A DNA stretch of 64,000 nt, from sequence record OM386662.1; one strand, written 5' to 3'. Both the position numbers and the translations under genes were made by a program. How positions within the stretch are numbered: position 1 is the stretch's first letter; the number at the start of each line of letters is the position of its first letter. A model generated the notes under the pieces. The model had not been told where the DNA came from and searched no databases. It worked only from the letters and a program-made list of their open reading frames with translations. Source of the stretch: Escherichia phage vB_EcoM_ESCO47. Below, one piece after another: positions 363-36,033 of this stretch.

Positions 363-914
363 TTATCTGAAGATATTTATCACTCTTTTAAAAAATGATT
401 TTCGTTCTTTTTCTGGCCATGCCGGGAATTCGCCACCTAAATGCTCATGCTTTTCATAAAGAGCAAAGAAACGTTTAAGATTCTGGTAATAGAATTTCTC
501 GTCTTTATTTGCAACAGAAGCTTCAACCAAATTAGACAAGACTTGGTACTCTTTAAAAAGTTGATCAAGTTTTCTATTTCTAAGAGTCAAACGTTTATAA
601 CACTCATCCTCTTTCCAGCCGCCATCTATCCAAAGATCAAACTCGCCAGGCTCATCAAATGTTGCACCCTGTAAGCTTCCTATACTATCAATTTTAACGG
701 GTTGTTTATCGAAGGTCCAAGCTAGTTTACCGCGATGATCTTCTTCGTAAATCCAATCTTGAATGCGTTCGTCAAAAACAATCGCATATCCTTCTTTATG
801 ATCAAGTGGTTTTTTAGTTGTAGAATGCGCCGGGAGCCCAATGCCTTTAACAGGTTTATATGTTTCTTCTTTATAAAATTCTTTAGTGTCAAAATAGTAG
901 TGGTAAATTTTCAT
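363..914 (-). CDS. 38: gp38 long tail fibre assembly protein (T4-type)
   Basis: 183-aa ORF MKIYHYYFDTKEFYKEE...; same length and N-terminus as T4 gp38; follows gene 37. Confidence 0.9.
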   Translation of the reverse strand: MKIYHYYFDTKEFYKEETYKPVKGIGLPAHSTTKKPLDHKEGYAIVFDERIQDWIYEEDHRGKLAWTFDKQPVKIDSIGSLQGATFDEPGEFDLWIDGGWKEDECYKRLTLRNRKLDQLFKEYQVLSNLVEASVANKDEKFYYQNLKRFFALYEKHEHLGGEFPAWPEKERKSFFKRVINIFR

Positions 915-944
915 TATTATAAAGGGCCCGAAGGCCCTCTCCTT
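915..944 (-). promoter_or_regulatory. 38: Gene 38 translation initiation region with hairpin between SD and AUG
   Basis: On the minus strand SD AAGGAG (939-944) is about 24 nt from the AUG, separated by GGGCC-UUCG-GGCCC hairpin (924-937). Confidence 0.5.
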
Positions 945-3900
945 AAGCTAAACGAACGATATAGTTAAACGCAACGTTTTTAACAGTGTTCTCTGTATTA
1001 CCTGTTGCGTTAACTGTTATTGTGTGACTATGTGAGCCTAATGCAACGGTGTGTGTATGAGCACCAATACCTACAGTATGCGTATGAGCACCAACGGCCA
1101 CGTTATGTGTATGTGCTCCAGCCGAAGCAGCAGTACCAGATAAAGAGTGACTGTGGTTGCCCTGACTGTCTGTTTTCGCACAATAACCAGCTCCCTGCTG
1201 GTTGGTTCCTTTAACCGTGGATACACTTGCCGGAATGGTTACTGTTCCGTATTGGCTCCAACCACTACTGCTCATCCTTAAACCATCTGTGTGAGCATGG
1301 GCGCCGGTTGAGTTTGTGGAACCGCTCAGACTATGTGTATGCGCACCAGCTGAAGCAGCAGATTTGGTACCGTAGTCAAAACTCGAACTTGTCTTAGTAC
1401 CGTAGTCAAAACTTGACGACGTTTTTGTACCTAGATCAACCGAGTTAGAAGAAGCACTATGGGTATGAGATTTAACACCATCTGCTTCTGTACTCAACAC
1501 TGCACGACCACTCGGTTTACCTTTAATAGTTTGTCCACGCATATCAGGAATAGTTCCTGAAGTATATACTGCACCTAATTTAGGATACGCCGCTTTGTCA
1601 AAAGTCTGGCCTTCCATAATAGCATAACCCACAGGAGGTGTATCAGTTGGCCATGGAATCGGAGCACCAATCGGATAACTAGAGATGATATCCGTCTTAA
1701 GACTATTTATCGTCGTATTTAGGTTAGCAAAGTTACCAGTACCACCTGTGATATTACCATCAGTACCAATTATAACGGTATTAATTTCAATTTTATTAGG
1801 TGAACGGAACGAGCCATCACGTCTAAATTGCCATGCTAAATCCGCCTTTTGTGGACCTGTTGAATCATTATCACCGCCTTCATGATAGTGAATTCTAAAA
1901 TCACCCGTACTAATTAATGTACCCAAAGAATAACAACTATCGCCCTGGACATATCGTTGTTTCAAAATAGGAACGTAAGTACTTGTATCTGTACGATTAA
2001 TATTCATGTAGAATGGGGCACGAACATTTTCATTATTTTGCGAGACAAATGAACCAGCCCCTGCTGGTTTAACAATATCAGTACATTCAGCATCAATATA
2101 TGTCGACTGCCCTAATTGCATACGGAAATTAGGACTTATACGCGAATTAGTGGTCAACACAACGAGTTTTGTATCATTGTCTACGGTGACCATATTACCG
2201 CCGGCACCATCATCACCTAATGTAACGGTATGACGCATTTGTACCATGCCATTATTAAGACTAATACTTAATGGGCGGAGATTACTTATTCCACCGCTTT
2301 CACCAGCATCTTTGGGAGTTGGAATAATATGCAATGCTGCTTCAGAGCGGCGGAAAATAGCACCGTATTCGGCATTCCAAATTCTTAATGCATCATTAGT
2401 TCCACCAATTTTAACTTGACCACTAATAGAAGAACCGCCTGTTAAACTAAGTCCATTGCTCATGGTAACTGCACCATTTAAAGTGCTCAAACCATCAACT
2501 TTAAGACTTCCTGCAGTGTTAATAGAGCCGTTAGCATTAACTTGTCCATTGAACTGGGATACAACAGGCCCAGTAGTTTCAGAGCCACTTGGAGCCATAC
2601 GCTGTGAATAAAAATAATATCCTTGTCCATCAGAAACTTCGAATACTGTTTCGCGCGCTTTGTCACCGGTAGCATTAAAACTATTACCCCAAGCTTTAAC
2701 AGTCACATAACTTTTATTCTGTCCTGCTCTAGAACCAGCTTCCCACAAGATTTGTTTTGTGCCGTCTACCCCTGTAGGAGCTTTAAATGTTAAAGCCGAC
2801 GTATTATCGTCACCTGCAAAATACATGCCGGATCGTATAGAAATACGTTGGGTTGAATAGATGGTACCATCAGCCCTAAGATTTAATTCATTATTACCGG
2901 TTTTGATGTTTAATATGCCAGGTTCAACAATAAGACCCTCGGACATAGATACTGCCATACGTCCTGTGCCACGGAAATAATGATAAAACTTACCATTACT
3001 ATTATACCCAAGATGAGTTTGTCCATCACCGTTAGCATTACCATCAGGAGTTGTTTGAATTGTTAAAACAGAAGCGTTATTTCCAGGCATTACCCAGGTG
3101 GCACCAGAGTCATCTGAGCGACCGACAGTCAAACGTTTCGTACTTAAAAATACCCCATTTGTTAAAGTCGCAGTAGAAGTACCTTGTGCAACAAAATCAA
3201 TTTTACCTGAAGCGATAGATTTGAATCCAGTAGATGGGTCCCCTAGAACTATATAACATTCGCCCATAGCGCCAGTTGAACCATAGTTATTAATGTTTTC
3301 ATCTGCGGTAATTGTGCCAATTGCGAGAGAACGACGTAATACTAAAGATCCATCATTACGAAGACCCATCCGTTTATTAATCGCGGTGTCACCTGTCCAC
3401 CAAGAAATCTCTTCGCTTTTACCAGTTTGTGAAGAAACTAATTCATGATAAATCGTGCCGCCGGATTTTGCGCGGAATTTACGAAGATAGTTAATACCGT
3501 TTTCTTCACCTGTGCCAGGATAAACATACTGAACTAATGATTGCGAATCGTATTGTCCAAATGCTTTTGTGTCTAAAACAATGGTTTTCGTATTAACTTG
3601 TGGAGCAGAAACTATACCAGTAGCGGAGTTAATATTGCCTGACGCAGAAATATTACCTGTTGCAACAACCAAGCTACCAGAATCAACCGTAAATCCACCA
3701 TCGCGTCGGAAAGTCCAATATTTCGAAGTGCCTGTTTCATCAATATAATGCATCTTCATTGAGCCTTCATTAACTAAGGTCCCTAATGAGAAAGTACCAT
3801 CTTTATAACGTTGCTTAATTAACGGGTTATATTCTGAAGTAGCGGTTGATGCGGAAATATCCATGAAAATAGGGGCTTTTGCCGTGTGTTGACCGGCCCA

Positions 3901-4197
3901 AGAACCAACTCCGGTGCCCTTATAAGCAAATTCGATATATCCACCTGATGCAACATTTTGTGAGCCTATTAAATTAAATGTACCTGTCTGAGTATAGTTA
4001 CCTACATGAGTTACATTACCATTAATATCCCCACCTTTAGCGAACCCAAGGTTAATAATATTGCCTAAATCATCTTTTGTAAAAATAGTACGATCTTTTA
4101 AGTTTATAGCCAATTCACCTTCGGCTAATTGCGCAGCTGTTGGATTAACACCAGCTACTTTGCTTCTTTTAAATTGTATTTGCTTAATAGTAGCCAT
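943..4197 (-). CDS. 37: gp37 long tail fibre distal subunit (receptor-binding tip)
   Basis: 1084-aa ORF; N-terminus [19 protein letters not shown]; C-terminal His-box repeats (GAHTH/GSHSH) and ...[11 protein letters not shown] end as in T4 gp37. Confidence 0.95.
1367..1437 (-). repeat. 37: Tandem 30-nt coding repeat in gene 37 ([10 protein letters not shown] x2 plus diverged third copy)
   Basis: Two adjacent 30-nt units share the first 15 nt exactly (gtaccgtagtcaaaa) with a partial third unit. Confidence 0.8.
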
Positions 4198-19761: not shown

Positions 19762-20895
<1,134 letters not shown>

Positions 20896-20897
20896 TG

Positions 20898-20927
20898 GTT
20901 TACAAACGCCAAGGATGGTGTTACTAT
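20898..20927 (+). promoter_or_regulatory. Early promoter (GTTTAC-N18-TACTAT) upstream of alc
   Basis: gtttacaaacgccaaggatggtgttactat. Confidence 0.6.
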
Positions 20928-20955
20928 GGACATATCAATTACCTAGGAGAACATT

Positions 20956-21456
20956 ATGAACATGCAATTGATTACTAATGATATGGTTGTAGCAGCATTT
21001 GGGGATTCAACCGACGGCATCCAAGTCTTTAAGAAAGGACGTGCAGTTGGTTACCTCACTGATCTTCGTACTACCCTGGCTAAAAATGCTAAAAAGAAGG
21101 TGAAGCAAAAGGAATACTCTACACGATATGTTGAAGAAAAACGCGAAGCAATGCCGGAAGCAGTAAACGCAATGGTAGAGTTCCTTCAAAACAATCTGTC
21201 TAAATATGACGCTAATGTGTTCATTAATATTAGTCAACCTAATGTTCATATTGCTGATAACAAATTTTATATCATTTGCGATCCTTTGTCTGATAAATTC
21301 AATCGTCTCGGAATTTCAAGCCCTTATCATACAGCAGAAGAGTTGTGTGTACTGTTTGAGACTTATAAAATCCAATGTGATGGTCCTAAGACAGTCTTGA
21401 TTAATGGTTTGTCCCGAGACGAAATCATTGAGATTATTGAAAAATGCTTAAAGTAA
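20956..21456 (+). CDS. alc: Probable Alc (host transcription unfolding/termination protein)
   Basis: 166-aa ORF at the T4 alc position between rnlA and the pseT.3 spanin gene; length matches (T4 Alc 167 aa); assignment by synteny only. Confidence 0.55.
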   Translation: MNMQLITNDMVVAAFGDSTDGIQVFKKGRAVGYLTDLRTTLAKNAKKKVKQKEYSTRYVEEKREAMPEAVNAMVEFLQNNLSKYDANVFINISQPNVHIADNKFYIICDPLSDKFNRLGISSPYHTAEELCVLFETYKIQCDGPKTVLINGLSRDEIIEIIEKCLK

Positions 21457-21800
21457 ATCCGATTTATGCTGTCATCGGAGCATTTGCTCTGGTTTCAGTG
21501 GTTACAATAGTTTTCTTAAATCATAAAGTTGACTCGTTAACAACCGAATTGACCACAGTTAAACAGGTCGCTAAAAACAACGCTGAAGCGTTAGATTCAT
21601 TCAAGATTCAATATGAGTCCATTAAAACCATGACTTATAAGAATCAGGCATTAGTTGAGCAAATTAAGGCTGAAAATGAAAAACTCCGGAAGGATGCGAA
21701 GAAGAGCAGCGTGGTGGCAAAGAAACCAGGACTCGTCGAGAACCAAATCAACAAGTCCTTTAACGCCTATGCAGAAGACCTCAGGAAGCTTTCAGAATGA
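21444..21800 (+). CDS. pseT.3: i-spanin (pseT.3-type)
   Basis: 118 aa with N-terminal TM helix (IYAVIGAFALVSVVTIVFL) followed by coiled-coil-like periplasmic region; stop overlaps next gene start. Confidence 0.75.
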   Translation: MLKVNPIYAVIGAFALVSVVTIVFLNHKVDSLTTELTTVKQVAKNNAEALDSFKIQYESIKTMTYKNQALVEQIKAENEKLRKDAKKSSVVAKKPGLVENQINKSFNAYAEDLRKLSE

Positions 21801-22087
21801 TTAAATTATCTGTACTTGTATTATCTATTGGTCTTTTGGTTGGATGTGCTCAGGACATTCCTGTAAGCCCTAAAGAGACTTTACACCCATCATGGCCTAG
21901 TCCTATTGCAGAGTATAACCAAAAATGGCAAGTTAAAGTCATTGACGGTATTCCATGGGTAGGTATGCCTTTTGAAGACTCTCAAGAATTCCGAATCTGG
22001 ATGAATGACGTAAAAAGATATGTACATGACCAGAAAACTATGATATGTTATTATCGTAGTGGTTTAAAAGAGGACAAATGCAAATGA
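21797..22087 (+). CDS. pseT.2: o-spanin lipoprotein (pseT.2-type)
   Basis: 96 aa with signal peptide and lipobox (LLVGC) then Cys-containing mature part; directly downstream of i-spanin. Confidence 0.8.
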   Translation: MIKLSVLVLSIGLLVGCAQDIPVSPKETLHPSWPSPIAEYNQKWQVKVIDGIPWVGMPFEDSQEFRIWMNDVKRYVHDQKTMICYYRSGLKEDKCK

Positions 22088-22302
22088 CACCTACTCAACT
22101 AGAACATCTTAAAGGGTTGATCTATGAGTCTGAAATGGCCGCAATGATTTACGGACGGCAGATTCAACGTTTAGAATCTTTACCTCCTTCAGGTGACCCA
22201 CTGATAGTTCAGTCTAGAGCTAATCTTAAAAATGAGTACCAAAACAAGTGGGGCAAAGCGGCCAATGCACTTCATGAGTACATTCAAACTCTAGTAAAAT
22301 AG
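22078..22302 (+). CDS. Hypothetical protein (pseT.1 position)
   Basis: 74-aa ORF overlapping the o-spanin end. Confidence 0.5.
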   Translation: MQMTPTQLEHLKGLIYESEMAAMIYGRQIQRLESLPPSGDPLIVQSRANLKNEYQNKWGKAANALHEYIQTLVK

Positions 22303-22337
22303 TTGTACAAACTCTTGGGAGCAGAGTATAATGCTCC
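22303..22337 (+). promoter_or_regulatory. Putative sigma70-type promoter upstream of pseT with -10 inside an inverted repeat
   Basis: TTGTAC-N18-TATAAT (22303-22332); GGAGCA (22318-22323) and TGCTCC (22332-22337) flank the -10. Confidence 0.4.
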
Positions 22338-22349
22338 TATGGACAATAA

Positions 22350-23266
<917 letters not shown>

Positions 23267-23267
<1 letters not shown>

Positions 23268-23458
23268 TGAAACTATTATATGAAGTGATTGAGGCCATCG
23301 AACAGCATAAAGAATATTTGTTTGTAGCCTGGCCTTTAGTAAATGGACAGTTCGGTATTGATGTGCTGGACTATGAGCATGAAGAACGTTTGGACGGTGG
23401 TATATTTGATAACGTCGACCAGGCAATTGAATGGTTAAATGAAAACTATGTACGATAA
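23267..23458 (+). CDS. Hypothetical small protein (cd.x region)
   Basis: 63-aa ORF starting at the pseT stop (TAATG). Confidence 0.45.
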
Positions 23459-23663
23459 ACATCATGAAATCGAAGATGAAGCATACAAAATGCTTCGTAA
23501 ACTAGTGGGACTTAATATGAGTCCTACATTAATCAACAAACTCGCAGGAATTCGTAATGATCTGAATACTCGTTACAAAGGCGAATATCATGTAGAGTTT
23601 GTTCCTGTAGGTGAACCGACCGAGCGATTTGTTGTTCGAGTTAAAGTAAATACTGTACACTGA
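23439..23663 (+). CDS. Hypothetical small protein (cd.x region)
   Basis: 74-aa ORF. Confidence 0.45.
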   Translation: MKTMYDKHHEIEDEAYKMLRKLVGLNMSPTLINKLAGIRNDLNTRYKGEYHVEFVPVGEPTERFVVRVKVNTVH

Positions 23664-23670
23664 GGTAATT

Positions 23671-23946
23671 ATGTTCCCAACTTATTCTGAAATTGTAAAG
23701 GTAGTCTTCAGTCAGATTATTGCTAATAATATGTTTGAAGTGCTTGATAATGCAGCCGAACTCAGAGTTCATGCTCAACTAACTCATGTACTCAATGCTT
23801 TGCTCCCGGACCAAGTAGATTCTATTGCTATTACTCTTCTCCCTGGGTCTGCACACGTCATAGTGGTATTTGATCTTGACGGCGATTTAGTTATCCAATG
23901 TGATATCAATTTCGGTACACAAAAAATTGAATGCAAAGCAATTTAA
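23671..23946 (+). CDS. Hypothetical small protein (cd.x region)
   Basis: 91-aa ORF with SD GAGG upstream. Confidence 0.5.
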   Translation: MFPTYSEIVKVVFSQIIANNMFEVLDNAAELRVHAQLTHVLNALLPDQVDSIAITLLPGSAHVIVVFDLDGDLVIQCDINFGTQKIECKAI

Positions 23947-23948
23947 TG

Positions 23949-23978
23949 GTTTACAACATGGTGGAGTTGTGATACTAT
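23949..23978 (+). promoter_or_regulatory. Early promoter (GTTTAC-N18-TACTAT)
   Basis: gtttacaacatggtggagttgtgatactat. Confidence 0.6.
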
Positions 23979-24006
23979 AACTCTACCAACAAATGAGGAA
24001 ATAGAA

Positions 24007-24243
24007 ATGCTAAGTGAAAACCCAATTACAGTACACGAATTTCAGATTAAAGTAAAAGAATTTGCTCAAGCACTCATCAATAAAGTGTCTGAACGTTTCC
24101 AAGATGCAACATTACGAGTTATTCAAGAATCTCCACGTTCTTTTCTCATAATCGTTAATCCTAAAGACGGTGACCAAATTACTAATCTTAAATTAGGCAG
24201 TGATGGTCTTGTTGAAGCAACTCGAGTATATGGAACACTATAA
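24007..24243 (+). CDS. Hypothetical small protein (cd.x region)
   Basis: 78-aa ORF preceded by early promoter 23949..23978 and SD GAGGAAA. Confidence 0.55.
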   Translation: MLSENPITVHEFQIKVKEFAQALINKVSERFQDATLRVIQESPRSFLIIVNPKDGDQITNLKLGSDGLVEATRVYGTL

Positions 24244-24351
24244 TGAGAGCTATCTCATTACTATCGAGAATGGTCATAAATCTGAGCACTACCAACTTAG
24301 CCTGTCTAATCCGGTTAAAGGTATTGTTGTTTATATCTCCTAAGGATTGTT

Positions 24352-25344
24352 ATGTTACCTGTCATCAGAAAACTTATTTCTCCAAAAGAACTGGCTGAGA
24401 TTATTCCTTTGTCGGAAGCTTACGCATCACAAGTGGCTTCTCATCGCGAACAAGTTAATTCGATTATGAACGGTGAAGACCCACGCAAACTTATTGTTGT
24501 AGGTCCTTGTTCAATTCATGACCCTATTGCTGCTGTTGAATACGGCAAACGTCTGGCTGAACTTCAAACTCGTCTTCCTAATGTTCTGTTAGTGATGCGC
24601 GTTTATTTTGAAAAGCCTCGAACTACCGTAGGTTGGAAAGGTCTTGTAAATGATCCATATCTTGACGGAAGTTTTGATATGAACCACGGTCTTATAGTTG
24701 CACGAACATTGTGTCGTAAACTTCTGCGTATGGGACTTCCATTAGCAACTGAAGTATTAGACCCATTCACGATTAAGTATCTTTCTGGTATTTTCTCATG
24801 GGTTGCTATTGGCGCCCGTACGACTGAAAGTCAGACACATCGTGAAATTGCTTCAGGTCTACCGATGTGCGTAGGCTTCAAGAACGCAACCAATGGTTCT
24901 ATTAAAGTAGCTACAGACGCGATGTATAGTGCCGCCCAGCCTCATCGGTATATGGGTATGGACGTCGATGGTACTGTAGGCATTGTTGAAGCTGAAGGTA
25001 ATCAGAATACGCATATCGTATTGCGTGGTGGGACTAACGGTCCGAACTATCATTCTTCTGATATTCAAGAAGCTTCTAACAAAGCAAGTGCGGTAGGTCT
25101 GAATCATTATGTAATGGTTGACTGTAGCCATGCAAACGCTGGTGGGTATTATAGCAATCAAATTGATATTGGTAAAAATTTAGCAGCTAATGATTTGGTC
25201 AAAGGAATTATGATAGAATCATTCCTACATGAAGGAAATCAAAAAATTTCTGATAATATGTCCTATGGCGTTTCCATTACCGATGCGTGCATCAGTTGGG
25301 AACAAACTAAAGAGCTGTTAACTTATATTAATAAGGTTCAATAA
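24352..25344 (+). CDS. 3-deoxy-D-arabino-heptulosonate-7-phosphate (DAHP) synthase, class I (AroF/AroG-like)
   Basis: 330-aa ORF with DAHP synthase signatures LIVVGPCSIHD, MRVYFEKPRTTVGWKGL, IGARTTESQTHRE, CVGFKN, MVDCSHAN, IESFLHEGNQ, YGVSITDACISW; SD AAGGA 5 nt before ATG. Confidence 0.9.
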   Translation: MLPVIRKLISPKELAEIIPLSEAYASQVASHREQVNSIMNGEDPRKLIVVGPCSIHDPIAAVEYGKRLAELQTRLPNVLLVMRVYFEKPRTTVGWKGLVNDPYLDGSFDMNHGLIVARTLCRKLLRMGLPLATEVLDPFTIKYLSGIFSWVAIGARTTESQTHREIASGLPMCVGFKNATNGSIKVATDAMYSAAQPHRYMGMDVDGTVGIVEAEGNQNTHIVLRGGTNGPNYHSSDIQEASNKASAVGLNHYVMVDCSHANAGGYYSNQIDIGKNLAANDLVKGIMIESFLHEGNQKISDNMSYGVSITDACISWEQTKELLTYINKVQ

Positions 25345-25925
25345 TGAAAGCTAGCACATATCTTCAAATTGCTTATTTGATTTCTCAAGAATCAAAATGT
25401 TGTTCATGGAAAGTTGGTGCCGTCATTGAAAAAGATGGACGCATTATCTCTACTGGATATAATGGTTCACCTGCAGGTGGCGTTAACTGTTGCGAACAGG
25501 CATCCGAAAATGGTTGGTTGAAGAATAAACCGAGTCCGGTCATCGTTGCTGGACATAAAGAAGGCACTACGGCATTTGGACGGGCAGATAATTTTGTTTT
25601 GGCTAAAGAACATCGAGCGGCTCATAGTGCATGGTCTGCTAATAATGAAATCCATGCTGAACTGAATGCAATTTTATTTGCAGCTCGTAAAGGTAATTCT
25701 ATTGAAGGTGCTACGTTGTATACGACGCTTTCTCCGTGTCCTGATTGCACTAAAGCTATTACACAGTCGGGTATTAAAAAGGTTGTATACGCAGAATTAT
25801 ATGACAGATCTCCTGAAAATTGGGCAGACATTCTTAAACAAGCTGGTATTGAAGTAATTCAGTACTCTCGTAATAATCTTCGTTCTCTGAATTGGGAACA
25901 AATCCGAAACTTTTGTGGTGAATAA
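25344..25925 (+). CDS. cd: dCMP deaminase
   Basis: 193-aa ORF MKASTYLQIAYLISQESKCCSWKVGAV...HAELNAI...LSPCPDCTKAI (zinc-deaminase motifs); same length as T4 Cd. Confidence 0.9.
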   Translation: MKASTYLQIAYLISQESKCCSWKVGAVIEKDGRIISTGYNGSPAGGVNCCEQASENGWLKNKPSPVIVAGHKEGTTAFGRADNFVLAKEHRAAHSAWSANNEIHAELNAILFAARKGNSIEGATLYTTLSPCPDCTKAITQSGIKKVVYAELYDRSPENWADILKQAGIEVIQYSRNNLRSLNWEQIRNFCGE

Positions 25926-25926
25926 T

Positions 25927-26223
25927 ATGATTTTAACTGAACAAGAAACTACGGTTCTTCGTGAACGTATTAAAACTATTCTGTCTGTAGGCGTTCATTG
26001 TGTTGTATTTGAAAAGGCTAATGGTGATGTTCGTACGATGTTTGCCTCCCGCGATGAACTTGAAGTCAAATATGAAAATAGAAATCCGGCAACAGAAGTT
26101 CGTTCTGAACCTCGTGAATCAGTTCGAGCATTCGATACCAAGTTAGGTCAGTGGCGTTCTTTTCGCCTTGATAAAGTAATTTCGGTTGATGGTACTCCGG
26201 TAGAACGTTTGCTTCTTCTGTAA
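25927..26223 (+). CDS. Hypothetical protein
   Basis: ATG at 25927 just after the cd stop; ~98 aa. Confidence 0.5.
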   Translation: MILTEQETTVLRERIKTILSVGVHCVVFEKANGDVRTMFASRDELEVKYENRNPATEVRSEPRESVRAFDTKLGQWRSFRLDKVISVDGTPVERLLLL

Positions 26224-26250
26224 TTTGCTTTACGTTTAATATGTTATTAT
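26224..26250 (+). promoter_or_regulatory. Middle promoter upstream of gene 31 (MotA box tTGCTTTA plus TATTAT)
   Basis: TGCTT core 26226-26230; 12-nt spacer; -10 26245-26250. Confidence 0.5.
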
Positions 26251-26280
26251 TAATCTATCGTTAAACAAAAAGGAAATAAG

Positions 26281-26613
26281 ATGTCTGAAGTACAACTCCC
26301 AATTCGTGCTGTTGGTGAATATGTTATTCTGGTTTCTGAACCCGCTCAAGCAGGTGATGAAGAAGTTACCGAATCAGGACTTGTGATTGGTAAACGTGTT
26401 CAAGGTGAAGTTCCTGAACTATGTGTAGTTCATTCTGTAGGTCCTGATGTTCCTGAAGGTTTCTGTGAAGTTGGTGATTTGACTCCACTACCAGTTGGAC
26501 AAATTCGAAATGTTCCACATCCATTTGTGGCTTTAGGACTTAAACAACCTAAAGAAATTAAACAGAAATTTGTCACTTGTCATTACAAAGCAATCCCGTG
26601 TCTTTATAAGTGA
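26281..26613 (+). CDS. 31: gp31 co-chaperonin (GroES analogue)
   Basis: 110-aa [37 protein letters not shown]...; matches T4 gp31; middle promoter upstream. Confidence 0.9.
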
Positions 26614-26621
26614 TATAAATA
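26614..26621 (+). promoter_or_regulatory. Late promoter TATAAATA upstream of rIII
   Basis: Exact TATAAATA just after the gene 31 stop. Confidence 0.45.
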
Positions 26622-26739
26622 ATAATATGAATTGAGTTCCAATTCTATGAGGTAGTCTACAACTGAGAGATCTGTCGAAAGAAGATGAAATTCAGAAGAA
26701 CGTGACTACCAAGTTTTAATCTCTAACGAGAATTTTTAA

Positions 26740-26988
26740 ATGATTAAACAATTACAACACGCTCTCGAACTGCAACGCTCTGCATGGAACAACGGTCACG
26801 AAAACTACGGTGCATCAATTGATGTTGAAGCCGAAGCACTGGAAATCCTGCAGTATTTCAAACATCTGAATCCTGTCCAAGCTGATCTTCGTGATGTTCT
26901 GGCTCAGAAAGATGAACTGAAATATGCTAAGCCTCTGGCTTCTGCCGCACGTAAAGCAGTTCGTCATTTTGTTATTACTTTGAAATAA
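26740..26988 (+). CDS. rIII: rIII lysis-inhibition accessory protein
   Basis: 82-aa ORF MIKQLQHALELQRSAWNNGHENYGASIDVEAEALEIL...; matches T4 RIII length and sequence. Confidence 0.85.
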   Translation: MIKQLQHALELQRSAWNNGHENYGASIDVEAEALEILQYFKHLNPVQADLRDVLAQKDELKYAKPLASAARKAVRHFVITLK

Positions 26989-27151
26989 TTGCTATCATGC
27001 GTCAGCAAAAGGTTAGCTGTGTAAGTCATGGTAGGTATGATGACAGGTTTATGGTTATCCTGTCGGTAAATATACAAAACCTATGTTCCCCTCGAGGGCT
27101 TACGCAGGCAATGTCAATAAGTCCTGCATTTTCATTTAAAGAGAATTTATA

Positions 27152-27331
27152 ATGGCAAAACAAGCTAAAGCAAAGAAAGCAGTTGAAAAGAAAGTTGATG
27201 GTACCTCTAAACGCGCTGGATACAAGCGTGGGTCGAACTCTCGTATTAATCAAACCGTTGAGAAGATCATGCGCAGAGCACGTGCAGTTCTTCGAGATGA
27301 TGCTTCTCGTTTTGGAAAGGTTGTTGCATAA
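27152..27331 (+). CDS. Hypothetical small lysine/arginine-rich protein (not in supplied ORF track)
   Basis: 59-codon ORF read directly from sequence: MAKQAKAKKAVEKKVDGTSKRAGYKRGSNSRINQTVEKIMRRARAVLRDDASRFGKVVA; followed 5 nt later by a strong UUCG terminator hairpin. Confidence 0.45.
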   Translation: MAKQAKAKKAVEKKVDGTSKRAGYKRGSNSRINQTVEKIMRRARAVLRDDASRFGKVVA

Positions 27332-27336
27332 TTTTA

Positions 27337-27358
27337 GGGAGACTTCGGTCTCCCTTTT
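27337..27358 (+). terminator. Rho-independent terminator after the small basic ORF
   Basis: Same GGGAGAC-UUCG-GUCUCCC hairpin followed by UUUU. Confidence 0.65.
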
Positions 27359-27395
27359 GTGCGTTTAGGGCAGAAAAAGTTTAAAAAAAAAAGAT

Positions 27396-27424
27396 GTTTA
27401 CTCTCCTGTAGGATGTGTTACTAT
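27396..27424 (+). promoter_or_regulatory. Early promoter (GTTTAC-N17-TACTAT)
   Basis: gtttactctcctgtaggatgtgttactat; preceded by A10 tract. Confidence 0.6.
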
Positions 27425-27465
27425 AGACTTGTACCACCTAATCAATAAAACAACCGGAGAATAAA

Positions 27466-27837
27466 ATGAACACTATCAATTTAAATGCTACAATTAAATG
27501 CCGTGACCATGATGGATATAAATCTCAAGTTGTTAACGAGTTACAGTGGATGGTTCGTTCAGTTCAAGGTGATGTGGTTTATTGTACAACTCCTGATGGC
27601 CCTTCAGACGATTTTTGTTATCATATCGAAATCGAAAACTTTTTCACTGGTGAAATTTACCGTCTGAATTCTACAGTTTATGGCTGTATTCGTTCTAAAA
27701 CTTACGAAGATGAAGAAACTGGTTACTCTGAAGATGTTGTATGGTACGAAAACGCCAGAAATCGCGCAGAGACATTAATCGAGAAGATTAAAGCAAAAGG
27801 TGTTATTGATTCAGCTAAGTGGACAAAAATCAAATAA
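27466..27837 (+). CDS. Hypothetical early protein
   Basis: 123-aa ORF with early promoter 27396..27424 and SD GGAG upstream. Confidence 0.55.
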   Translation: MNTINLNATIKCRDHDGYKSQVVNELQWMVRSVQGDVVYCTTPDGPSDDFCYHIEIENFFTGEIYRLNSTVYGCIRSKTYEDEETGYSEDVVWYENARNRAETLIEKIKAKGVIDSAKWTKIK

Positions 27838-27841
27838 AAAT

Positions 27842-27880
27842 GTTTACTTTGGTACAGGATATGTTATTATATACCTGTAC
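27842..27880 (+). promoter_or_regulatory. Early promoter (GTTTAC-N17-TATTAT) with -10 inside an 8-bp inverted repeat
   Basis: gtttactttggtacaggatatgttattat; GGTACAGG (27851-27858) and CCTGTACC (27873-27880) flank the -10. Confidence 0.6.
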
Positions 27881-27911
27881 CAACAAACAACTTAAACATC
27901 TGGAGAATAAA

Positions 27912-28277
27912 ATGAACTACACCAACTTCGAACGCAAATATGTTTCTAACGGTATCGCTGGTTCTATTGATACGATTTGCTTATGGAAACATAACAATGG
28001 TTCAGTATGTGAAATTGAGCAGTATATGACACCTAATTATGTTTATATGCGATTTGAAAATGGTATCACCCTTTCAATTACAATGGAAGGTTCCAACTTC
28101 AAAATCGCTCTGGATGATGACTTCCGTCAACGTGATTTAGGTACTCATCCTTGTTGGAATGGTGATAATCGTAAGCTTCTGGTTAAAACTTGGATTCGCC
28201 ATATTCTGAGTAATAGAGCTAAACCTGAACATCTTGAAGCAATCTTTGATGTAGTTCTTAACGAATTCGATATTTGA
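27912..28277 (+). CDS. Hypothetical early protein
   Basis: ATG at 27912 after SD GGAG and early promoter 27842..27870; 121 aa; track ORF starts at an upstream non-ATG codon. Confidence 0.55.
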   Translation: MNYTNFERKYVSNGIAGSIDTICLWKHNNGSVCEIEQYMTPNYVYMRFENGITLSITMEGSNFKIALDDDFRQRDLGTHPCWNGDNRKLLVKTWIRHILSNRAKPEHLEAIFDVVLNEFDI

Positions 28278-28318
28278 TCTAACAAACAGGGGCTTCGGCC
28301 CCTATTGAGGAAATTAAA

Positions 28319-28513
28319 ATGAATTTATTTGTATCGCAAACTGTCCGGTTAAAAGGCGATGGAATTCCCGGAATGATTTCTAAAGTGTTACCTGCATTTA
28401 AATTGGGAGATATTCAGATCAAAGAAACCTATGTGGTCTTATGGGTAGACGGTACTGAAGATGTTCGTATGGGTTCTGAATTAGCAGTAATCAAATGTTT
28501 AAAGCGAGGATAA
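28319..28513 (+). CDS. Hypothetical small protein
   Basis: 64-aa ORF with SD GAGGAAA upstream. Confidence 0.45.
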   Translation: MNLFVSQTVRLKGDGIPGMISKVLPAFKLGDIQIKETYVVLWVDGTEDVRMGSELAVIKCLKRG

Positions 28514-28638
28514 TATGATTAAGAAGCTAATCCAAAAATTGCTTGGCACTGAAATAGTTGAAGTTACTTATCGTGTGACTGACGTAAGCCCACGGACCCG
28601 AAATATTGGACCGTACTAAAACAATTGAGAGATTCATT

Positions 28639-29475
28639 ATGAAACCCGTGATTTTAACCGATATTGATGGAGTATGTTTGAGCTGGCAGTCAGGTCTTCC
28701 ATATTTTGCACAAAAATATAATCTGCCTTTAGAACATATCCTTAAAATGATTCAAGACGAAAAGTTTATTGCTCCTGGTAAACTTTTCAATACTGACGAT
28801 AATCTTGGTAAACAATTAATCGAAAAATATAATTGTTCTGATTTTATTCGTTATTTAGCTCCATATACTGACGCTTTGCGTGTAATCAATAAGCTCAAAT
28901 CCGACTACAATTTTGTAGCTGTAACGGCTCTAGGTGATTCAATTGATGCCCGTTTGAATAGACAATTTAATCTAAACGCATTGTTCCCTGGCGCTTTCTC
29001 AGAAGTTATGATGTGCGGTCATGATTCTTCAAAGGAACAATTGTTTAAAAAGGCTAAAGAGAAATATAATATTGTATGTTATGTCGATGATTTGGCTCAC
29101 CACTGTGACCATGCATCAGAAATTCTTAATGTGCCGGTATACTGGTTAGCTCGTGGTGAACGTGATGCAATTCCACGTACTGCACAACGTGTTTATACGT
29201 GGGACGATATTGAGCATCGTTTGGTTCCACCCGAGCATAATTCAGATTCAGATCGTGAAGACCTTTTAAAACGATTGGCGGATTTGCTTAAAGAATCCGG
29301 TGCAACAAGTCCAGGTGCGTGGCCTAATCAAATTGGCGCTCCGTCGAATCCGTATACCTGGCGAACCCCAGGACCAACCGATATGCAGCCTCATTGGCGA
29401 TACACTAATGTAGGCGAACATCCTGTTCCTCCGTATTGGGCAGTTCCACAAGGTTACGGCACAACTAAGGGTTAA
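28639..29475 (+). CDS. HAD-superfamily hydrolase-like protein with Pro/Trp-rich C-terminal tail
   Basis: ATG at 28639; N-terminus MKPVILTDIDGVCLSW carries the HAD motif I (DxDG); C-terminal 55 residues are Pro/Trp/Tyr-rich. Confidence 0.6.
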   Translation: MKPVILTDIDGVCLSWQSGLPYFAQKYNLPLEHILKMIQDEKFIAPGKLFNTDDNLGKQLIEKYNCSDFIRYLAPYTDALRVINKLKSDYNFVAVTALGDSIDARLNRQFNLNALFPGAFSEVMMCGHDSSKEQLFKKAKEKYNIVCYVDDLAHHCDHASEILNVPVYWLARGERDAIPRTAQRVYTWDDIEHRLVPPEHNSDSDREDLLKRLADLLKESGATSPGAWPNQIGAPSNPYTWRTPGPTDMQPHWRYTNVGEHPVPPYWAVPQGYGTTKG

Positions 29476-29477
29476 TT

Positions 29478-29747
29478 ATGTTTGTAGTTCATGATATTAC
29501 AGACGGCAAAAACACAACGCGTGACTACGGTCATGTTAACATGTTCTTTCGAGACTGGCCATTGTTTCGTTCAGTAAAAGACGCAGAAATATTTAAAGAG
29601 TGTGTTGAACAAGGGTTCATCTACATTTCAGAATATTATGTTGAAGGTCTCGGTAAATGGATTACAACTTATCAGAAAACGCTGAAATCGCTTCTAGATG
29701 AAGTGGCTTATAATAGAACCGTAACCAAAATCGAGGACATCAAATGA
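29478..29747 (+). CDS. Hypothetical protein
   Basis: 89-aa ORF; stop overlaps ligase start (ATGA). Confidence 0.5.
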   Translation: MFVVHDITDGKNTTRDYGHVNMFFRDWPLFRSVKDAEIFKECVEQGFIYISEYYVEGLGKWITTYQKTLKSLLDEVAYNRTVTKIEDIK

Positions 29748-31237
29748 TTTTAGATATTTTAAACCAAATAGCCGCGATCGGTTCTACTAAAACAAAACAG
29801 GAAATCATTAAGAAAAATAAGGACAACAAATTACTTGAACGTGTGTATCGTTTAACATATGCACGTGGTATCCAGTATTATATTAAGAAATGGCCAGGAC
29901 CAGGTGAAAGGTCTCAAGCGTATGGTCTTCTTGAATTAGATGACATGTTGGATTTTATTGAGTTCACATTAGCCACTCGTAAACTCACTGGTAATGCTGC
30001 AATTAAAGAGCTCATGGGTTATATCGCTGACGGTAAACCTGATGATGTAGAAGTCCTTCGTCGTGTAATGATGCGCGACCTTGAAGTAGGTGCTTCAGTG
30101 TCTATCGCGAATAAGGTGTGGCCTGGACTTATTCAATTGCAACCACAGATGTTAGCATCGGCATATGATGAGAAATTGATTACTAAAAATATTAAATGGC
30201 CCGCATTTGCCCAATTAAAAGCAGATGGTGCTCGTTGTTTCGCTGAAGTTCGCGATGATGGTGTTCAATTCTTTTCTCGTGCCGGTAACGAATACCATGG
30301 TCTTACTCTATTAGCGGATGAACTGATGGAAATGACTAAAGAAGCTCGTGAAAGACACCCTAATGGGGTTTTAATCGACGGTGAATTAGTTTATCATTCA
30401 TTTGATATTAAAAAGGCTGTGAGCTCAGGAAATGACCTGTCGTTCTTATTTGGTGATAATGAAGAATCCGAAGAAGTACAGGTTGCAGACCGTAGCACTT
30501 CAAATGGTTTAGCAAATAAATCTCTTCAAGGGACTATTTCTCCTAAAGAAGCTGAAGGTATGGTTCTTCAAGCCTGGGACTATGTTCCTTTAGATGAAGT
30601 CTATTCTGATGGCAAAATTAAAGGTCAGAAATACGATGTTCGTTTTGCTGCTCTTGAAAATATGGCTGAAGGCTTTAAGCGAATTGAGCCAATTGAAAAT
30701 CAGTTAGTTCGTAATCTTGATGAAGCTAAAGCGGTTTATAAAAAATATGTTGACCAAGGTCTTGAAGGTATTATCCTTAAAAACCGTGATTCATATTGGG
30801 AAAACAAACGCTCTAAGAACCTAATTAAATTTAAAGAAGTTATTGATATCGCTTTAGAAGTTGTAGGATACTATGAACACTCTAAAGACCCTAACAAATT
30901 AGGTGGCGTCGAACTCGTATCACGTTGTCGTCGTATTACAACCGATTGTGGTTCAGGTTTTAAAGATACAACTCATAAAACAGTTGATGGTGTAAAGGTT
31001 CTTATTCCTTTAGACGAGCGTCATGATTTGGACCGTGAACGATTAATGGCCGAAGCTCGTGAAGGTAAATTAATTGGACGTATCGCTGATTGTGAATGTA
31101 ATGGTTGGGTTCATTCTAAAGGCCGCGAAGGTACTGTAGGTATTTTCCTTCCAATTATTAAAGGGTTCCGTTTTGATAAAACAGAAGCGGATTCGTTTGA
31201 AGACGTATTTGGACCATGGTCCCAGACAGGTTTATAA
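29744..31237 (+). CDS. 30: ATP-dependent DNA ligase
   Basis: 497-aa ORF MILDILNQIAAIGSTKTKQEII...; adenylation motif AQLKADGARCFA (KxDG); matches T4 ligase. Confidence 0.95.
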   Translation: MILDILNQIAAIGSTKTKQEIIKKNKDNKLLERVYRLTYARGIQYYIKKWPGPGERSQAYGLLELDDMLDFIEFTLATRKLTGNAAIKELMGYIADGKPDDVEVLRRVMMRDLEVGASVSIANKVWPGLIQLQPQMLASAYDEKLITKNIKWPAFAQLKADGARCFAEVRDDGVQFFSRAGNEYHGLTLLADELMEMTKEARERHPNGVLIDGELVYHSFDIKKAVSSGNDLSFLFGDNEESEEVQVADRSTSNGLANKSLQGTISPKEAEGMVLQAWDYVPLDEVYSDGKIKGQKYDVRFAALENMAEGFKRIEPIENQLVRNLDEAKAVYKKYVDQGLEGIILKNRDSYWENKRSKNLIKFKEVIDIALEVVGYYEHSKDPNKLGGVELVSRCRRITTDCGSGFKDTTHKTVDGVKVLIPLDERHDLDRERLMAEAREGKLIGRIADCECNGWVHSKGREGTVGIFLPIIKGFRFDKTEADSFEDVFGPWSQTGL

Positions 31238-31425
31238 TGAAAGCTTATTTAGAAACAGTAGTTGTCGCCAATAAAGACGGTAGTGATGTTTCTGCCTCTT
31301 GTTCCCAAATTGTATTAGATTTTCCTAATAACGATTCCTATCATATTTTTATGGACAATTTTGATAAGTACGAAAAAGGCCCTAATTTTGAAGTTTATCG
31401 TACTTTGCTCCCGATTGTGGATTAA
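31237..31425 (+). CDS. Hypothetical small protein
   Basis: ATG at 31237 overlapping ligase stop; 62 aa; followed by UUCG terminator. Confidence 0.45.
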   Translation: MKAYLETVVVANKDGSDVSASCSQIVLDFPNNDSYHIFMDNFDKYEKGPNFEVYRTLLPIVD

Positions 31426-31445
31426 GAGCCTTCGGGCTCTTTTTG
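31425..31445 (+). terminator. Rho-independent terminator between the ligase operon and alt
   Basis: AGAGCC-UUCG-GGCUCU followed by UUUUU. Confidence 0.65.
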
Positions 31446-31480
31446 GCATAAATATAAATTATTACTAAAAGGAAAACACT

Positions 31481-33568
31481 ATGTCTGAACAATTAAATGA
31501 AGTGTTTGAATCCGAAGGCAGTCTTCCTGTCGTCAATTTGAACCCTAAAGCTAAAGTTCCACAAGTCTGGAAAATTGGTGATGTTGATACAAATATTGTA
31601 GTTCGTTTATTCTCTTACCTTTCCGAAGGCGACGCTGTAAAACAAGTTAAACTTGGGGACAAATACGCTCATGTTGTTATTATGAGTCTGTCTGAAAAGG
31701 GTAATCTTGCTGAATTGAAAAATGGCCTTGGTCCTGCTCCTATTGATGCAATCAACACCATTTTCAATACAGTATATGAACAGGTTAAAGCTCTTCGTAT
31801 GGATGCAGTTCTGTTCCGATTCCCTACCAAGAAATTGAAAGGACGTGGACAGCAGCTTCAAACTCTTCTTGCTCGTTTAGTTTCTACTAAAACCGGCGGT
31901 CGTTTTAAAGTATTGTCTGCAATGTATCAATTCACAGGTAAACACACCTATGTGATGATGGTTCGTAAAAATGCCAACATTGAAGATATTAAAGGCATCC
32001 CTAACATTAACACAGAGTTGTACACGAAAGTAGATTCTGATGTTGGTGAAGTTTATGTGAGTAAAAAGACTGGCGAAAAGGTCACCAAAGAAACGGCTAT
32101 CGCCGGTTCTATTGCTGCTGTAGAAGAAAAACGTAAAGATAAGCCTGTTATTGCTCGTACTAAAATTTCTCGTCGTGCTATTGCAGCAAGTCAATCTTTA
32201 GAAGCCGACCGACAAGAAGGTGAGTTATTCCAGAAATACGAAAATTCTGCTAAAGAAGTTAGTGGCCCAGCTACAGCCGAATTACTTCCTGAAGCATATG
32301 AAATCGTACTAGCCCAAGCATCGTCCACAGCAAAAGGCACTTTAGTTGCTGATATCGAAAATAAGATTTATAATCGTATTGATGAATCCTTTAAATTTGC
32401 TGATGAAGTTTCTTATGGTAGTGTTATTAAGCCGTCTTTAGAAAAGTTTGCTAAGAAAATTAAAACCGAAAAAACAACATCTGTTAAAGCATTAGCTGCT
32501 TTTGTTGAAGCTGCAAACGAAATTGCAGACTCTATTAAAGACGAATGGTTTGAAGATTTTAGACGAGATAATTTCCAACTGGCTGACGACGTTTTAGCTG
32601 AAGTATCTGAAAGAACTTGGAAACAACGTAAATCAGCATTCTTGTCTAATGTGATGTATACTTATGCACGAGAATCGGCTAGAGGTACCTTTAATATAAC
32701 AATGAATCGGGACCCTAAACAATACTCTGTTGCTGAAAAACGAGCTATTCGTGAATATGCCTCTTCTGCGTATACTGATATCAATAATATGTTGTTAGGT
32801 CGTTATAAACCAGATTTTTACGATGTTGCAGATGAAGATGAAGTTAAACGCGCTATTGATGGTCTTGATTCGGCGTTTTTAAATGGAGACCGTTTACCTG
32901 AAGGGCTAACGTTATATAGAGCTCAGTCTATCAGAATGCCTATTTACGAAGCGATGGTTAAAAATAAGGTATTCTACTTCAGAAACTATGTTTCCACTTC
33001 ACTAGCTCCTATTATTTTCGGCGGGTTTAAAGAGAACGTTGCCATTGGACTTGCTCCTGAAGAAGTTCGCAAAGATCTTAACATTGACAATAATGACGAA
33101 GGTGTTACTATTTCTCCTAGTCTAGTAAGAACAGCTATGCATGCGCCAGAACAAATCCGTGTTAACGTTGGATGGGCTATTGATGGCGCCCATAAAGTTA
33201 ACGTGATTTATCCAGGACAGTTGAGTAATCACCCTAATGAGCAAGAAATTATTTTGCCTAGAGGCATTCTCTTGCAGATAAATAAAATTACAGATGCGTC
33301 ATCTGACACTGGTGCAGGTTTAGAATCCAACCTTAAATTTATTCAAGCTGAAGTCATGTCCTCAGACCAGTTGGACGAAGCTGTCATTTACGATGGTGAC
33401 GTTCTCATGGAAACAGGCGAGGTGGTTGCTATGACGGGTGAAATCGAATCAGATGAGCCGGTATCGTTCTCCTCATTTGTAGAAAAAACTAGTGCACCTA
33501 AAGGTTTGAAATTGCTGGCATCTTTAATGGATTTAGAATCAGTTCCATTTAAATTTGTCCAAGGATAG
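31481..33568 (+). CDS. alt: Alt-like ADP-ribosyltransferase (head-packaged)
   Basis: 695-aa ORF at the T4 alt position between ligase and gene 54; C-terminal region carries ART catalytic triad motifs LYRAQ ... YVSTSL ... EQEIILP. Confidence 0.75.
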   Translation: MSEQLNEVFESEGSLPVVNLNPKAKVPQVWKIGDVDTNIVVRLFSYLSEGDAVKQVKLGDKYAHVVIMSLSEKGNLAELKNGLGPAPIDAINTIFNTVYEQVKALRMDAVLFRFPTKKLKGRGQQLQTLLARLVSTKTGGRFKVLSAMYQFTGKHTYVMMVRKNANIEDIKGIPNINTELYTKVDSDVGEVYVSKKTGEKVTKETAIAGSIAAVEEKRKDKPVIARTKISRRAIAASQSLEADRQEGELFQKYENSAKEVSGPATAELLPEAYEIVLAQASSTAKGTLVADIENKIYNRIDESFKFADEVSYGSVIKPSLEKFAKKIKTEKTTSVKALAAFVEAANEIADSIKDEWFEDFRRDNFQLADDVLAEVSERTWKQRKSAFLSNVMYTYARESARGTFNITMNRDPKQYSVAEKRAIREYASSAYTDINNMLLGRYKPDFYDVADEDEVKRAIDGLDSAFLNGDRLPEGLTLYRAQSIRMPIYEAMVKNKVFYFRNYVSTSLAPIIFGGFKENVAIGLAPEEVRKDLNIDNNDEGVTISPSLVRTAMHAPEQIRVNVGWAIDGAHKVNVIYPGQLSNHPNEQEIILPRGILLQINKITDASSDTGAGLESNLKFIQAEVMSSDQLDEAVIYDGDVLMETGEVVAMTGEIESDEPVSFSSFVEKTSAPKGLKLLASLMDLESVPFKFVQG

Positions 33569-33597
33569 TTTACAAACACATGGATGTGTGATACTAT
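33568..33597 (+). promoter_or_regulatory. Early promoter (GTTTAC-N18-TACTAT) overlapping the alt stop
   Basis: gtttacaaacacatggatgtgtgatactat. Confidence 0.6.
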
Positions 33598-33626
33598 CAT
33601 CCCATCAACAACATGAGGAAACCGTT

Positions 33627-33920
33627 ATGAAATCTATGCTTCGCTTTAATGGTCAAGAACTAGTAGTTGAAGATGCTATCCCAGCGGATGATGTTTTTAA
33701 CGAAGCTGTTATTGACGAATTGAATCGAGTATTCCCAGGTGCATTCCATATTGCTATGGAACCTCTTAAAAACTTTCGTGACCCTGAGCACACTGATCAA
33801 ATTTTTATCGGTGTAGTGGCAGGTCATTTAGAAACAGAGGTACCAATGGTCGTATTAGTTAAATACTCTAAAGATGATACTCCATTCCGAGCACCAGCAT
33901 TCCTTTCATTCCGTAAATAA
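33627..33920 (+). CDS. Hypothetical protein
   Basis: ATG at 33627 after early promoter 33568..33597 and SD GAGGAAA; 97 aa. Confidence 0.5.
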   Translation: MKSMLRFNGQELVVEDAIPADDVFNEAVIDELNRVFPGAFHIAMEPLKNFRDPEHTDQIFIGVVAGHLETEVPMVVLVKYSKDDTPFRAPAFLSFRK

Positions 33921-33929
33921 ACCCCTAAA

Positions 33930-33952
33930 GGGAGACGTTGTCTCCCTTTTTT
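33930..33952 (+). terminator. Rho-independent terminator at the plus/minus strand convergence before gene 54
   Basis: GGGAGAC-GUU-GUCUCCC followed by UUUUUU. Confidence 0.6.
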
Positions 33953-33953
33953 C

Positions 33954-36025: not shown

Positions 36026-36033
36026 AATAATCC

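Follow-up and report, generated by a model that had tools for sequence, protein, structure and literature searches.

The decapeptide repeat in gene 37 of Escherichia phage vB_EcoM_ESCO47 (OM386662.1, of which a 64,000-nucleotide stretch, hereafter the window, was analysed) is a conserved and compensated module of the tail-fibre needle stem, present in its commonest copy number. Judged from sequence comparisons, the repeat probably represents units of the ascending strand of the stem that form part of a paired extension, leaving the stem one rung longer than that of T4. The same comparisons place an additional unit on the descending strand, and copy numbers on the two strands were found to be coupled across homologous fibres.

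Gene 37 and its decapeptide repeat

A T4-type long-tail-fibre locus, encoded on the minus strand, occupies the left end of the window. The phage belongs to the Tevenvirinae and is Tequatrovirus- or Mosigvirus-like, its best matches among phage records being 92.8–93.6% identical over 20 kb, and no phage record covered ≥80% of gene 37 at the DNA level. Gp37 matched phrog_295 (E = 1e-103), and the counterpart gene in phage records is annotated as long tail fiber distal subunit. Its C-terminal 271 amino acids matched the T4 gp37 tip in the Protein Data Bank (PDB 2XGF, phmmer, E = 5.9e-89), with query positions 15–285 aligned to positions 2–242 of chain 2xgf_A. Directly downstream lies a gene 38-type open reading frame (ORF), a neighbour that carries the same annotation in LF82-41, lambda and other T-even phages, and the ORFs beyond gene 37 are, from their size and order, presumably genes 36, 35 and 34. 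A protein search with the gp37 shaft and collar (window 1540–2400) gave 19 matches, mostly to short prophage proteins. On the basis of homology, collar, HxH motifs, C-terminus and chaperone gene, the window gp37 is a member of the T4 gp37/lambda Stf needle family. The features of the locus are as follows.

363..914, minus strand: gene 38-type tail-fibre assembly chaperone, 183 aa (phrog_105 'tail fiber assembly', E = 1.1e-41)
943..4197, minus strand: gene 37, long tail fibre distal subunit (ORF list and translation, 1084 aa plus stop)
1525..1668, minus strand: collar (knob) domain, aa 844-891 (Pfam PF07484 Collar, E = 1e-10; aligns with the T4 D10 domain)
1459..1467, minus strand: HxH motif 1, HTH, aa 911-913, opening the ascending arm of the needle stem (aligns with T4 H883/H885)
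1342..1437, minus strand: ascending decapeptide array, aa 921-952 (translation and Tandem Repeats Finder; T4 has one unit fewer)
1333..1341, minus strand: HxH motif 2, HTH, aa 953-955 (42 residues past motif 1; 32 in T4)
1291..1299, minus strand: HxH motif 3, HAH, aa 967-969, the final one of the ascending arm (14 residues past motif 2)
1159..1290, minus strand: tip (head) subdomain, aa 970-1013, the predicted receptor-contacting part (lambda Stf/9g type)
1147..1155, minus strand: HxH motif 4, HSH, aa 1015-1017, opening the descending arm (motif position)
1012..1119, minus strand: descending nonapeptide array, aa 1027-1062, with HxH motifs 5-8 (four units; three in T4)
946..1011, minus strand: conserved C-terminal segment returning into the collar, aa 1063-1084 (aligns with the T4 C-terminus)

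Eight HxH sequence motifs are present in the window gp37, starting at aa 911, 953 and 967 on the ascending arm and at aa 1015, 1029, 1038, 1047 and 1056 on the descending arm. The fourth is enclosed by a match (aa 1010-1023) to Pfam PF03335, the 14-residue 'phage tail fibre repeat', and Tandem Repeats Finder detected the descending array with a period of 27 and 2.4 copies (1055-1120). Within the C-terminal segment, the ENTVKN..N..Y columns were invariant in two family alignments. The tip subdomain (aa 970-1013) aligned poorly to 2XGF and is unlike the T4 tip.

The ascending array, whose natural repeat frame is D[L/Y]GTKxxxxF, consists of two full units and a diverged one.

1402-1431, minus strand: unit 1, full, aa 923-932
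1372-1401, minus strand: unit 2, full, aa 933-942, identical in protein sequence to unit 1
1342-1371, minus strand: unit 3, diverged, aa 943-952, directly followed by HTH (aa 953-955)

Tandem Repeats Finder reported a period of 30, 2.6 copies and 77% matches for this array (1363-1439). The longest exact direct repeat is the 17-nt sequence GTACCGTAGTCAAAACT, found at 1367 and 1397 (30-nt spacing) and matched twice in the window against 0.02 matches expected (0/100 shuffles reached two). At the DNA level units 1 and 2 are identical at 23/30 positions, and all seven differences, including a TCG/AGT switch between serine codons, are synonymous. The repeat peptide (FDYGTK and variants) was not found in a full-text literature search. 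Translation and Tandem Repeats Finder thus bear out the original prediction of two identical decapeptides followed by a diverged third unit, while its dimensions need adjusting, as the shared run is 17 nt rather than 15 and the array extends to nt 1342, past the lower bound of 1367 first assigned to it. The accompanying statement that T4 has one full copy fewer agrees with the alignment to 2XGF, where a 10-residue gap falls precisely at the repeat.

A probable paired extension of the needle stem

In T4 gp37 each chain extends outward from the collar as far as the tip and then returns, forming a six-stranded needle with seven iron ions along its axis that are held by the histidines of HxH motifs (PMC6957217, PMC12609058). 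The stem of the T4 D11 domain comprises residues 882-931 on the way out and 960-1009 on the way back, with the tip, which contains the receptor-contact residues, at 932-959 (PMC6957217). In our alignment the repeat (aa 921-952) corresponds to T4 895-914, in the collar-proximal ascending stem between HxH iron sites 1 and 2. This puts it inside the D11 stem, and not in the receptor-proximal tip or upstream of the needle domain, as had been proposed.

A second gap in the 2XGF alignment falls in the C-terminal run, where T4 is without one 9-residue GxHxHxVxI unit. Outside indels in the divergent tip, the alignment contains only these two gaps, one of 10 residues on the ascending side and one of 9 residues in the descending HxH run, and the window accordingly has four descending nonapeptides against three in T4 (total HxH, 8 versus 7). 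The extra descending unit is separate from the repeat, approximately 290 nt away, and compensates for what had been read as a one-sided expansion.

We propose that the two full units and the diverged third are structural repeats on the ascending strand of an iron-stapled six-stranded beta needle. With a chain that goes out and returns, the two arms of the stem would have to keep register. Relative to T4, one 10-residue unit outward and one 9-residue GxHxHxVxI unit on the return would give eight HxH motifs and one added rung, predicted to carry one more octahedral His6-iron site and to lengthen the needle by about 2.5-3 nm, as estimated from 9-10 beta-strand residues. The T4 contacts G921-F970 and G964-H929 (as quoted in PMC6957217) suggest an antiparallel register with i+j of ~1892; extrapolated from these two contacts, it would set T4 895-914 beside 978-997, which are nonapeptide HxH units. 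On this evidence, we infer that the ascending and descending arrays are physically paired. Ten ascending residues do not match nine descending residues 1:1, and some local irregularity per module is assumed. An AlphaFold2 monomer model built on a 105-sequence alignment was of low quality (mean pLDDT 66.5) and placed beta strands in both repeat arrays; its top Foldseek match was 2xgf_A (E = 2.3e-14), with a TM-score of only 0.26-0.30.

Homologous C-termini were gathered from 120 word-index protein matches, 143 HMMER representatives, 80 IMG/VR loci and 20 phage records; the HMMER scan was exhaustive, and representatives were taken at 50% identity. For each sequence, the distance from HxH 1 to HxH 2 was set against the number of HxH motifs in the terminal series with 9-residue spacing. 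All 191 distinct complete C-termini had one more nonapeptide on the descending arm than decapeptides (1 to 6) on the ascending arm; by the register extrapolated above, the additional nonapeptide would face the linker after HxH 1. The classes, with ascending distances in residues, were distributed as follows.

Ascending distance 22: 2 descending nonapeptides, 1 distinct sequence
Ascending distance 32: 3 descending nonapeptides, 71 distinct sequences
Ascending distance 41 or 42: 4 descending nonapeptides, 102 distinct sequences
Ascending distance 52: 5 descending nonapeptides, 9 distinct sequences
Ascending distance 62: 6 descending nonapeptides, 3 distinct sequences
Ascending distance 72: 7 descending nonapeptides, 2 distinct sequences

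Three sequences were apparent exceptions, and on inspection all of them obey the unit count. One (P0227) has an extra ascending HxH motif that splits the distance (19 + 33 = 52) and five nonapeptides, while in the other two (P0238 and P0276) the second ascending HxH motif is absent and two decapeptides accompany three nonapeptides. When the total number of HxH motifs was compared with the number of GTK units, the two looked uncorrelated, because some tips are without the two flanking HxH motifs; the coupling is revealed when the ascending gap and the terminal 9-spaced run are taken separately. The 191 C-termini are phylogenetically related and hence do not represent independent events. Nonetheless, the two main stem-length classes each combine with at least 20 different tip lengths, so that the coupling is not the property of one clade, and the six length classes, with more than 20 tip lengths per major class, argue for many independent combinations.

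A natural pair of phages illustrates the coupling. Citrobacter phage PhiZZ23 and Shigella phage JK45 have C-termini that agree at 211/216 positions (97.7%), the entire tip included. They are separated by no indels other than a decapeptide on the ascending arm and a nonapeptide on the descending arm, such that one tip sequence is combined with a shorter stem in one phage and a longer stem in the other. In the DNA, these are clean 30-nt and 27-nt indels at short direct repeats. For example, nonapeptides 1 and 2 of JK45 have an 18-nt direct repeat in common, and a clean 27-nt deletion between its copies yields the PhiZZ23 sequence. Unequal exchange at short repeats is therefore a credible mutational route for the gain and loss of units, and the suggestion that the repeats are prone to slippage is reasonable to the extent that slippage or unequal crossing-over could plausibly act on them, with which the JK45/PhiZZ23 indels agree. 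In this comparison, only the doubly changed state was seen in nature.

The broader proposal that all stems of the family are assembled from insertable paired modules (a decapeptide, a nonapeptide and an iron site), one to six in number and none unpaired, appears unlikely to us in that general form. The paper on Bas63 notes that the number of HxH motifs may scale with needle length (PMC12609058). A rule pairing decapeptides with nonapeptides was not found stated in the literature searched, and the original 2XGF paper may describe such a rule. If the proposal were true, stem length would be tunable through two coordinated short indels and possibly adaptive, for example in reaching through lipopolysaccharide (LPS).

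Prevalence, age and alternative explanations

Among 17 Tevenvirinae compared (a non-random sample of the 9 best matches to the window and 8 evenly spaced down the ranking), the arrangement with an ascending distance of 42 was found in 13 (LF82-41, GiZh, F2, JK45, SHBML-50-1, slur03, phiD1, FriedrichZschokke, AV118, HX01, S143_2, O157 typing phage 3 and P896) and that with a distance of 32 in 4 (T4, EP01, GRNsp7 and PhiZZ23). An evenly spread sample from 596 matching phage records showed the same trend. The extra copy, originally regarded as unusual, also occurs in lambda Stf and phage 9g, and it is T4 that belongs to the minority. Alignment of gp37 with T4 and its relatives thus shows T4 to be shorter, as anticipated, and the two-copy form to be widespread yet not universal, with a copy number that varies.

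Comparison of individual units indicates their age. Window unit 1 is identical to unit 1 of LF82-41 at 28/30 positions and window unit 2 to unit 2 of 9g at 29/30, whereas matches to units at the other position in relatives reach just 22-23/30. These positional matches, together with the synonymous divergence between neighbouring units, imply that the duplication is older than these lineages and was never homogenised. The repeat expansion is accordingly not a recent event. A slippage-driven hypervariable repeat of the contingency type was also considered and rejected, given that the units are only 23/30 identical and that every change in copy number was accompanied by one in the partner array.

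Several alternative explanations may be weighed against a paired extension of the stem. According to one, needle length is an adaptive, tunable trait, in which one to six paired modules set how deeply the tip penetrates the LPS or O-antigen layer towards the outer-membrane receptor. This reading would account for the six discrete stem lengths in the family and has a simple mutational route at its disposal, and most tail fibres with the longer forms (52-72) were those of prophages, Enterobacter-type ones among them. However, one rung amounts to about 2% of a fibre of ~145 nm (length from PMC6957217), and phages that share hosts include members of both common classes. We consider this explanation improbable for the window.

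A somewhat less probable explanation is an expansion of the adhesin that alters host range, comparable to the tandem duplications of T4 gene 37. There is a precedent in that duplicated C-terminal segments of gp37 have reportedly changed host range, and the phages of the natural pair differ in their recorded hosts, with PhiZZ23 isolated on Citrobacter rodentium and JK45, named a Shigella phage, listing E. coli DH5alpha; host range is, however, not defined by isolation host alone. More directly, the repeat lies in the collar-proximal stem and not in the tip with its receptor-contact residues (T4 932-959), each stem class occurs with its many tip lengths (at least 20), and one tip is found with both stem lengths. 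The suggestion that the repeat could alter host range is, on these grounds, not upheld, and we infer that receptor specificity is unaffected by the extra unit.

The least probable explanation is that slippage recently duplicated the unit, or that assembly introduced it as an artefact, in the window genome alone, at a hotspot of unstable length: a 17-nt exact direct repeat at 30-nt spacing is present and the family shows indels at such repeats, but the units differ at 7/30 positions, all synonymously, same-position units in relatives are closer (28/30 and 29/30) than the neighbouring unit (23/30), the arrangement recurs in independent assemblies of lambda, 9g and 13 T-even phages, a 30-nt repeat is far below the length of a sequencing read, and a second extra unit ~290 nt away matches the first. 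Given this conservation in independent genomes, an assembly artefact in particular seems very unlikely.

With the paired stem extension as the preferred reading, the finding as first stated matters little: the receptor-binding domain is well studied, the repeat is one of its ordinary structural parts, and the phage has the common type of allele. For the engineering of chimeric T4/lambda fibres, it suggests that decapeptides and HxH nonapeptides be inserted or deleted as pairs, with register kept. For annotation, differences of one unit from T4 should not count as anomalies.

Comparison with lambda Stf, T4 gp37 and related fibres

In its tip region the window is most closely related to two fibres, the gp37 of LF82-41, a Mosigvirus, and the side tail fibre of 9g, a Nonagvirus and siphovirus. 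Over the last 205 amino acids, the window is 93.7% identical to LF82-41 and 88.3% identical to 9g. Both have the unit counts of the window, and HxH motifs in both are spaced 42, 14, 48, 14, 9, 9 and 9 residues apart, as in the window. The DNA of the tip segment is identical at 207/210 nt to LF82-41 and at 192/210 nt to 9g, and window 943-1800 as a whole is ~100% identical to LF82-41 DNA except for two short patches that resemble 9g. The first (1349-1408, ascending units 2-3) matches 9g at 66/69 positions and LF82-41 at 51/69, and the second (1049-1138, descending nonapeptides) matches 9g at 75/81 and LF82-41 at 63/81.

These two 9g-like patches coincide with segments that are predicted to lie side by side in the needle, and the tip between them is LF82-like. 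In addition, the combination of an 'SAASAGA' third unit with an 'HTHNVAV' nonapeptide, a candidate for a co-adapted contact pair, was seen only in the window and 9g. The paired patches could reflect co-selection of contacting segments, or they could reflect patchy recombination at conserved Gly/His motifs. Recombination of the latter kind is documented for this locus (PMC3157838).

The side fibre Stf of lambda (orf-314) shares the layout of the window gp37, with HxH spacings of 42, 14, 48, 14, 9, 9 and 9 (8 HxH), two full GTKxxxSFDY units followed by a diverged third, four descending nonapeptides and a tip of equal length. The two are 75% identical in amino acid sequence over the last 205 residues (tblastn), and in lambda, as in the window, the next gene encodes a Tfa/gp38-type chaperone. 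Lambda differs from the window in that the structure sits on the side fibre of a siphovirus, whose N-terminal shaft is unrelated; moreover, unit 2 of Stf reads GTKTTGSFDY and several tip residues differ. The lambda-like character of both the T4 gp37 C-terminus and gp38 has long been known (PMC3157838, PMC9659904, PMC7291167). T4 gp37 (PDB 2XGF; Bartual et al. 2010) belongs to one fold family with the window protein in its collar, needle and tip, and the two also have in common the conserved C-terminus, a gp38 chaperone and iron-binding-type HxH motifs in each arm of the stem. The T4 tip, in contrast, is the shorter one (37 residues from HxH to HxH versus 48), and its sequence is unrelated to that of the window tip.

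Tandem duplications in T4 gene 37 were reportedly found by Tetart et al. 1996 (J Mol Biol 258:726; cited in PMC3157838) to expand host range; they are said to span the specificity segment between His boxes and to have been selected in the laboratory. A host-range duplication of this type was considered for the window and rejected, as the repeat aligns with T4 stem residues 895-914, outside the tip at 932-959. Both cases involve tandem repeats in the C-terminal region of gp37, bounded by conserved Gly/His motifs at which recombination occurs (PMC3157838). The duplications of Tetart et al. reportedly multiply the specificity segment, whereas the window repeat belongs to the conserved stem and is compensated by a partner.

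Sequence relatedness of gene 37

Sequences were compared with an August 2025 phage collection from which the window's phage is absent. The closest genomes to window 20000-40000 showed 92.8%–93.6% identity over 20 kb, and ARAGORN, run over the full 64 kb (1-64000), detected no tRNA genes. Judged by sequence, gene 37 (943-4197, minus strand), which encodes the distal subunit of the long tail fibre, is a mosaic: no record exceeded ~77%–80% identity to its N-terminal two-thirds, and the C-terminal half of the gene was 89.5% identical to Mosigvirus LF82-41. Across 943-1800, LF82-41 and the window were ~100% identical outside two short patches. The two patches resembling siphovirus 9g are listed below with other needle features, and an LF82-like tip sits between them.

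Features of the gp37 needle (window coordinates; gene on the minus strand)
1049-1138, 9g-like patch spanning the descending nonapeptides
1055-1120, tandem repeat, period 27, 2.4 copies, TRF score 69
1147-1188 (aa 1010-1023), 14-residue module of one arm, HxHxLSGxxxxxGA (Pfam PF03335)
1291-1341, stretch with the 14-residue module of the other arm, HxHxLSGxxxxxGA
1349-1408, 9g-like patch spanning ascending units 2-3

The tandem repeat is the coding DNA for the descending GAHTHxVxx nonapeptides. The two 9g-like patches also coincide with two stem segments in predicted contact.

Paired features of the two arms

Among the homologues, the residue preceding the second HxH motif of the ascending arm covaried with that preceding the HxH of the first descending nonapeptide (sites corresponding to aa 951-955 and 1027-1031 in the window). 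Ascending GAHxH was paired with descending GAHxH in >53 homologues, GNHNH with GNHAH in 12, and GSHTH with GSHSH in a further 12. This covariation could reflect neighbouring metal sites or mere common ancestry.

The 14-residue module is a second type of paired module, located in the distal stem. Protein P0222 carries two such modules per arm, along with just one decapeptide and two nonapeptides. Four database proteins (P0002, P0039, P0045, and P0046) go by the names terminase large subunit, major head protein or ParB; they contain this tail-fibre C-terminus over 97%–100% of the query and are probably prophage ORFs that were fused or mis-called.

Unit differences between PhiZZ23 and JK45

When whole loci were compared, the gp37 C-termini of Citrobacter phage PhiZZ23 and Shigella phage JK45 were identical at 211 of 216 aa, and their indels were limited to a single 10-aa unit on the ascending arm and a single 9-aa HxH unit on the descending arm. 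Nonapeptides 1 and 2 of JK45 have an 18-nt direct repeat in common, and deleting 27 nt between these repeats yields the PhiZZ23 sequence.
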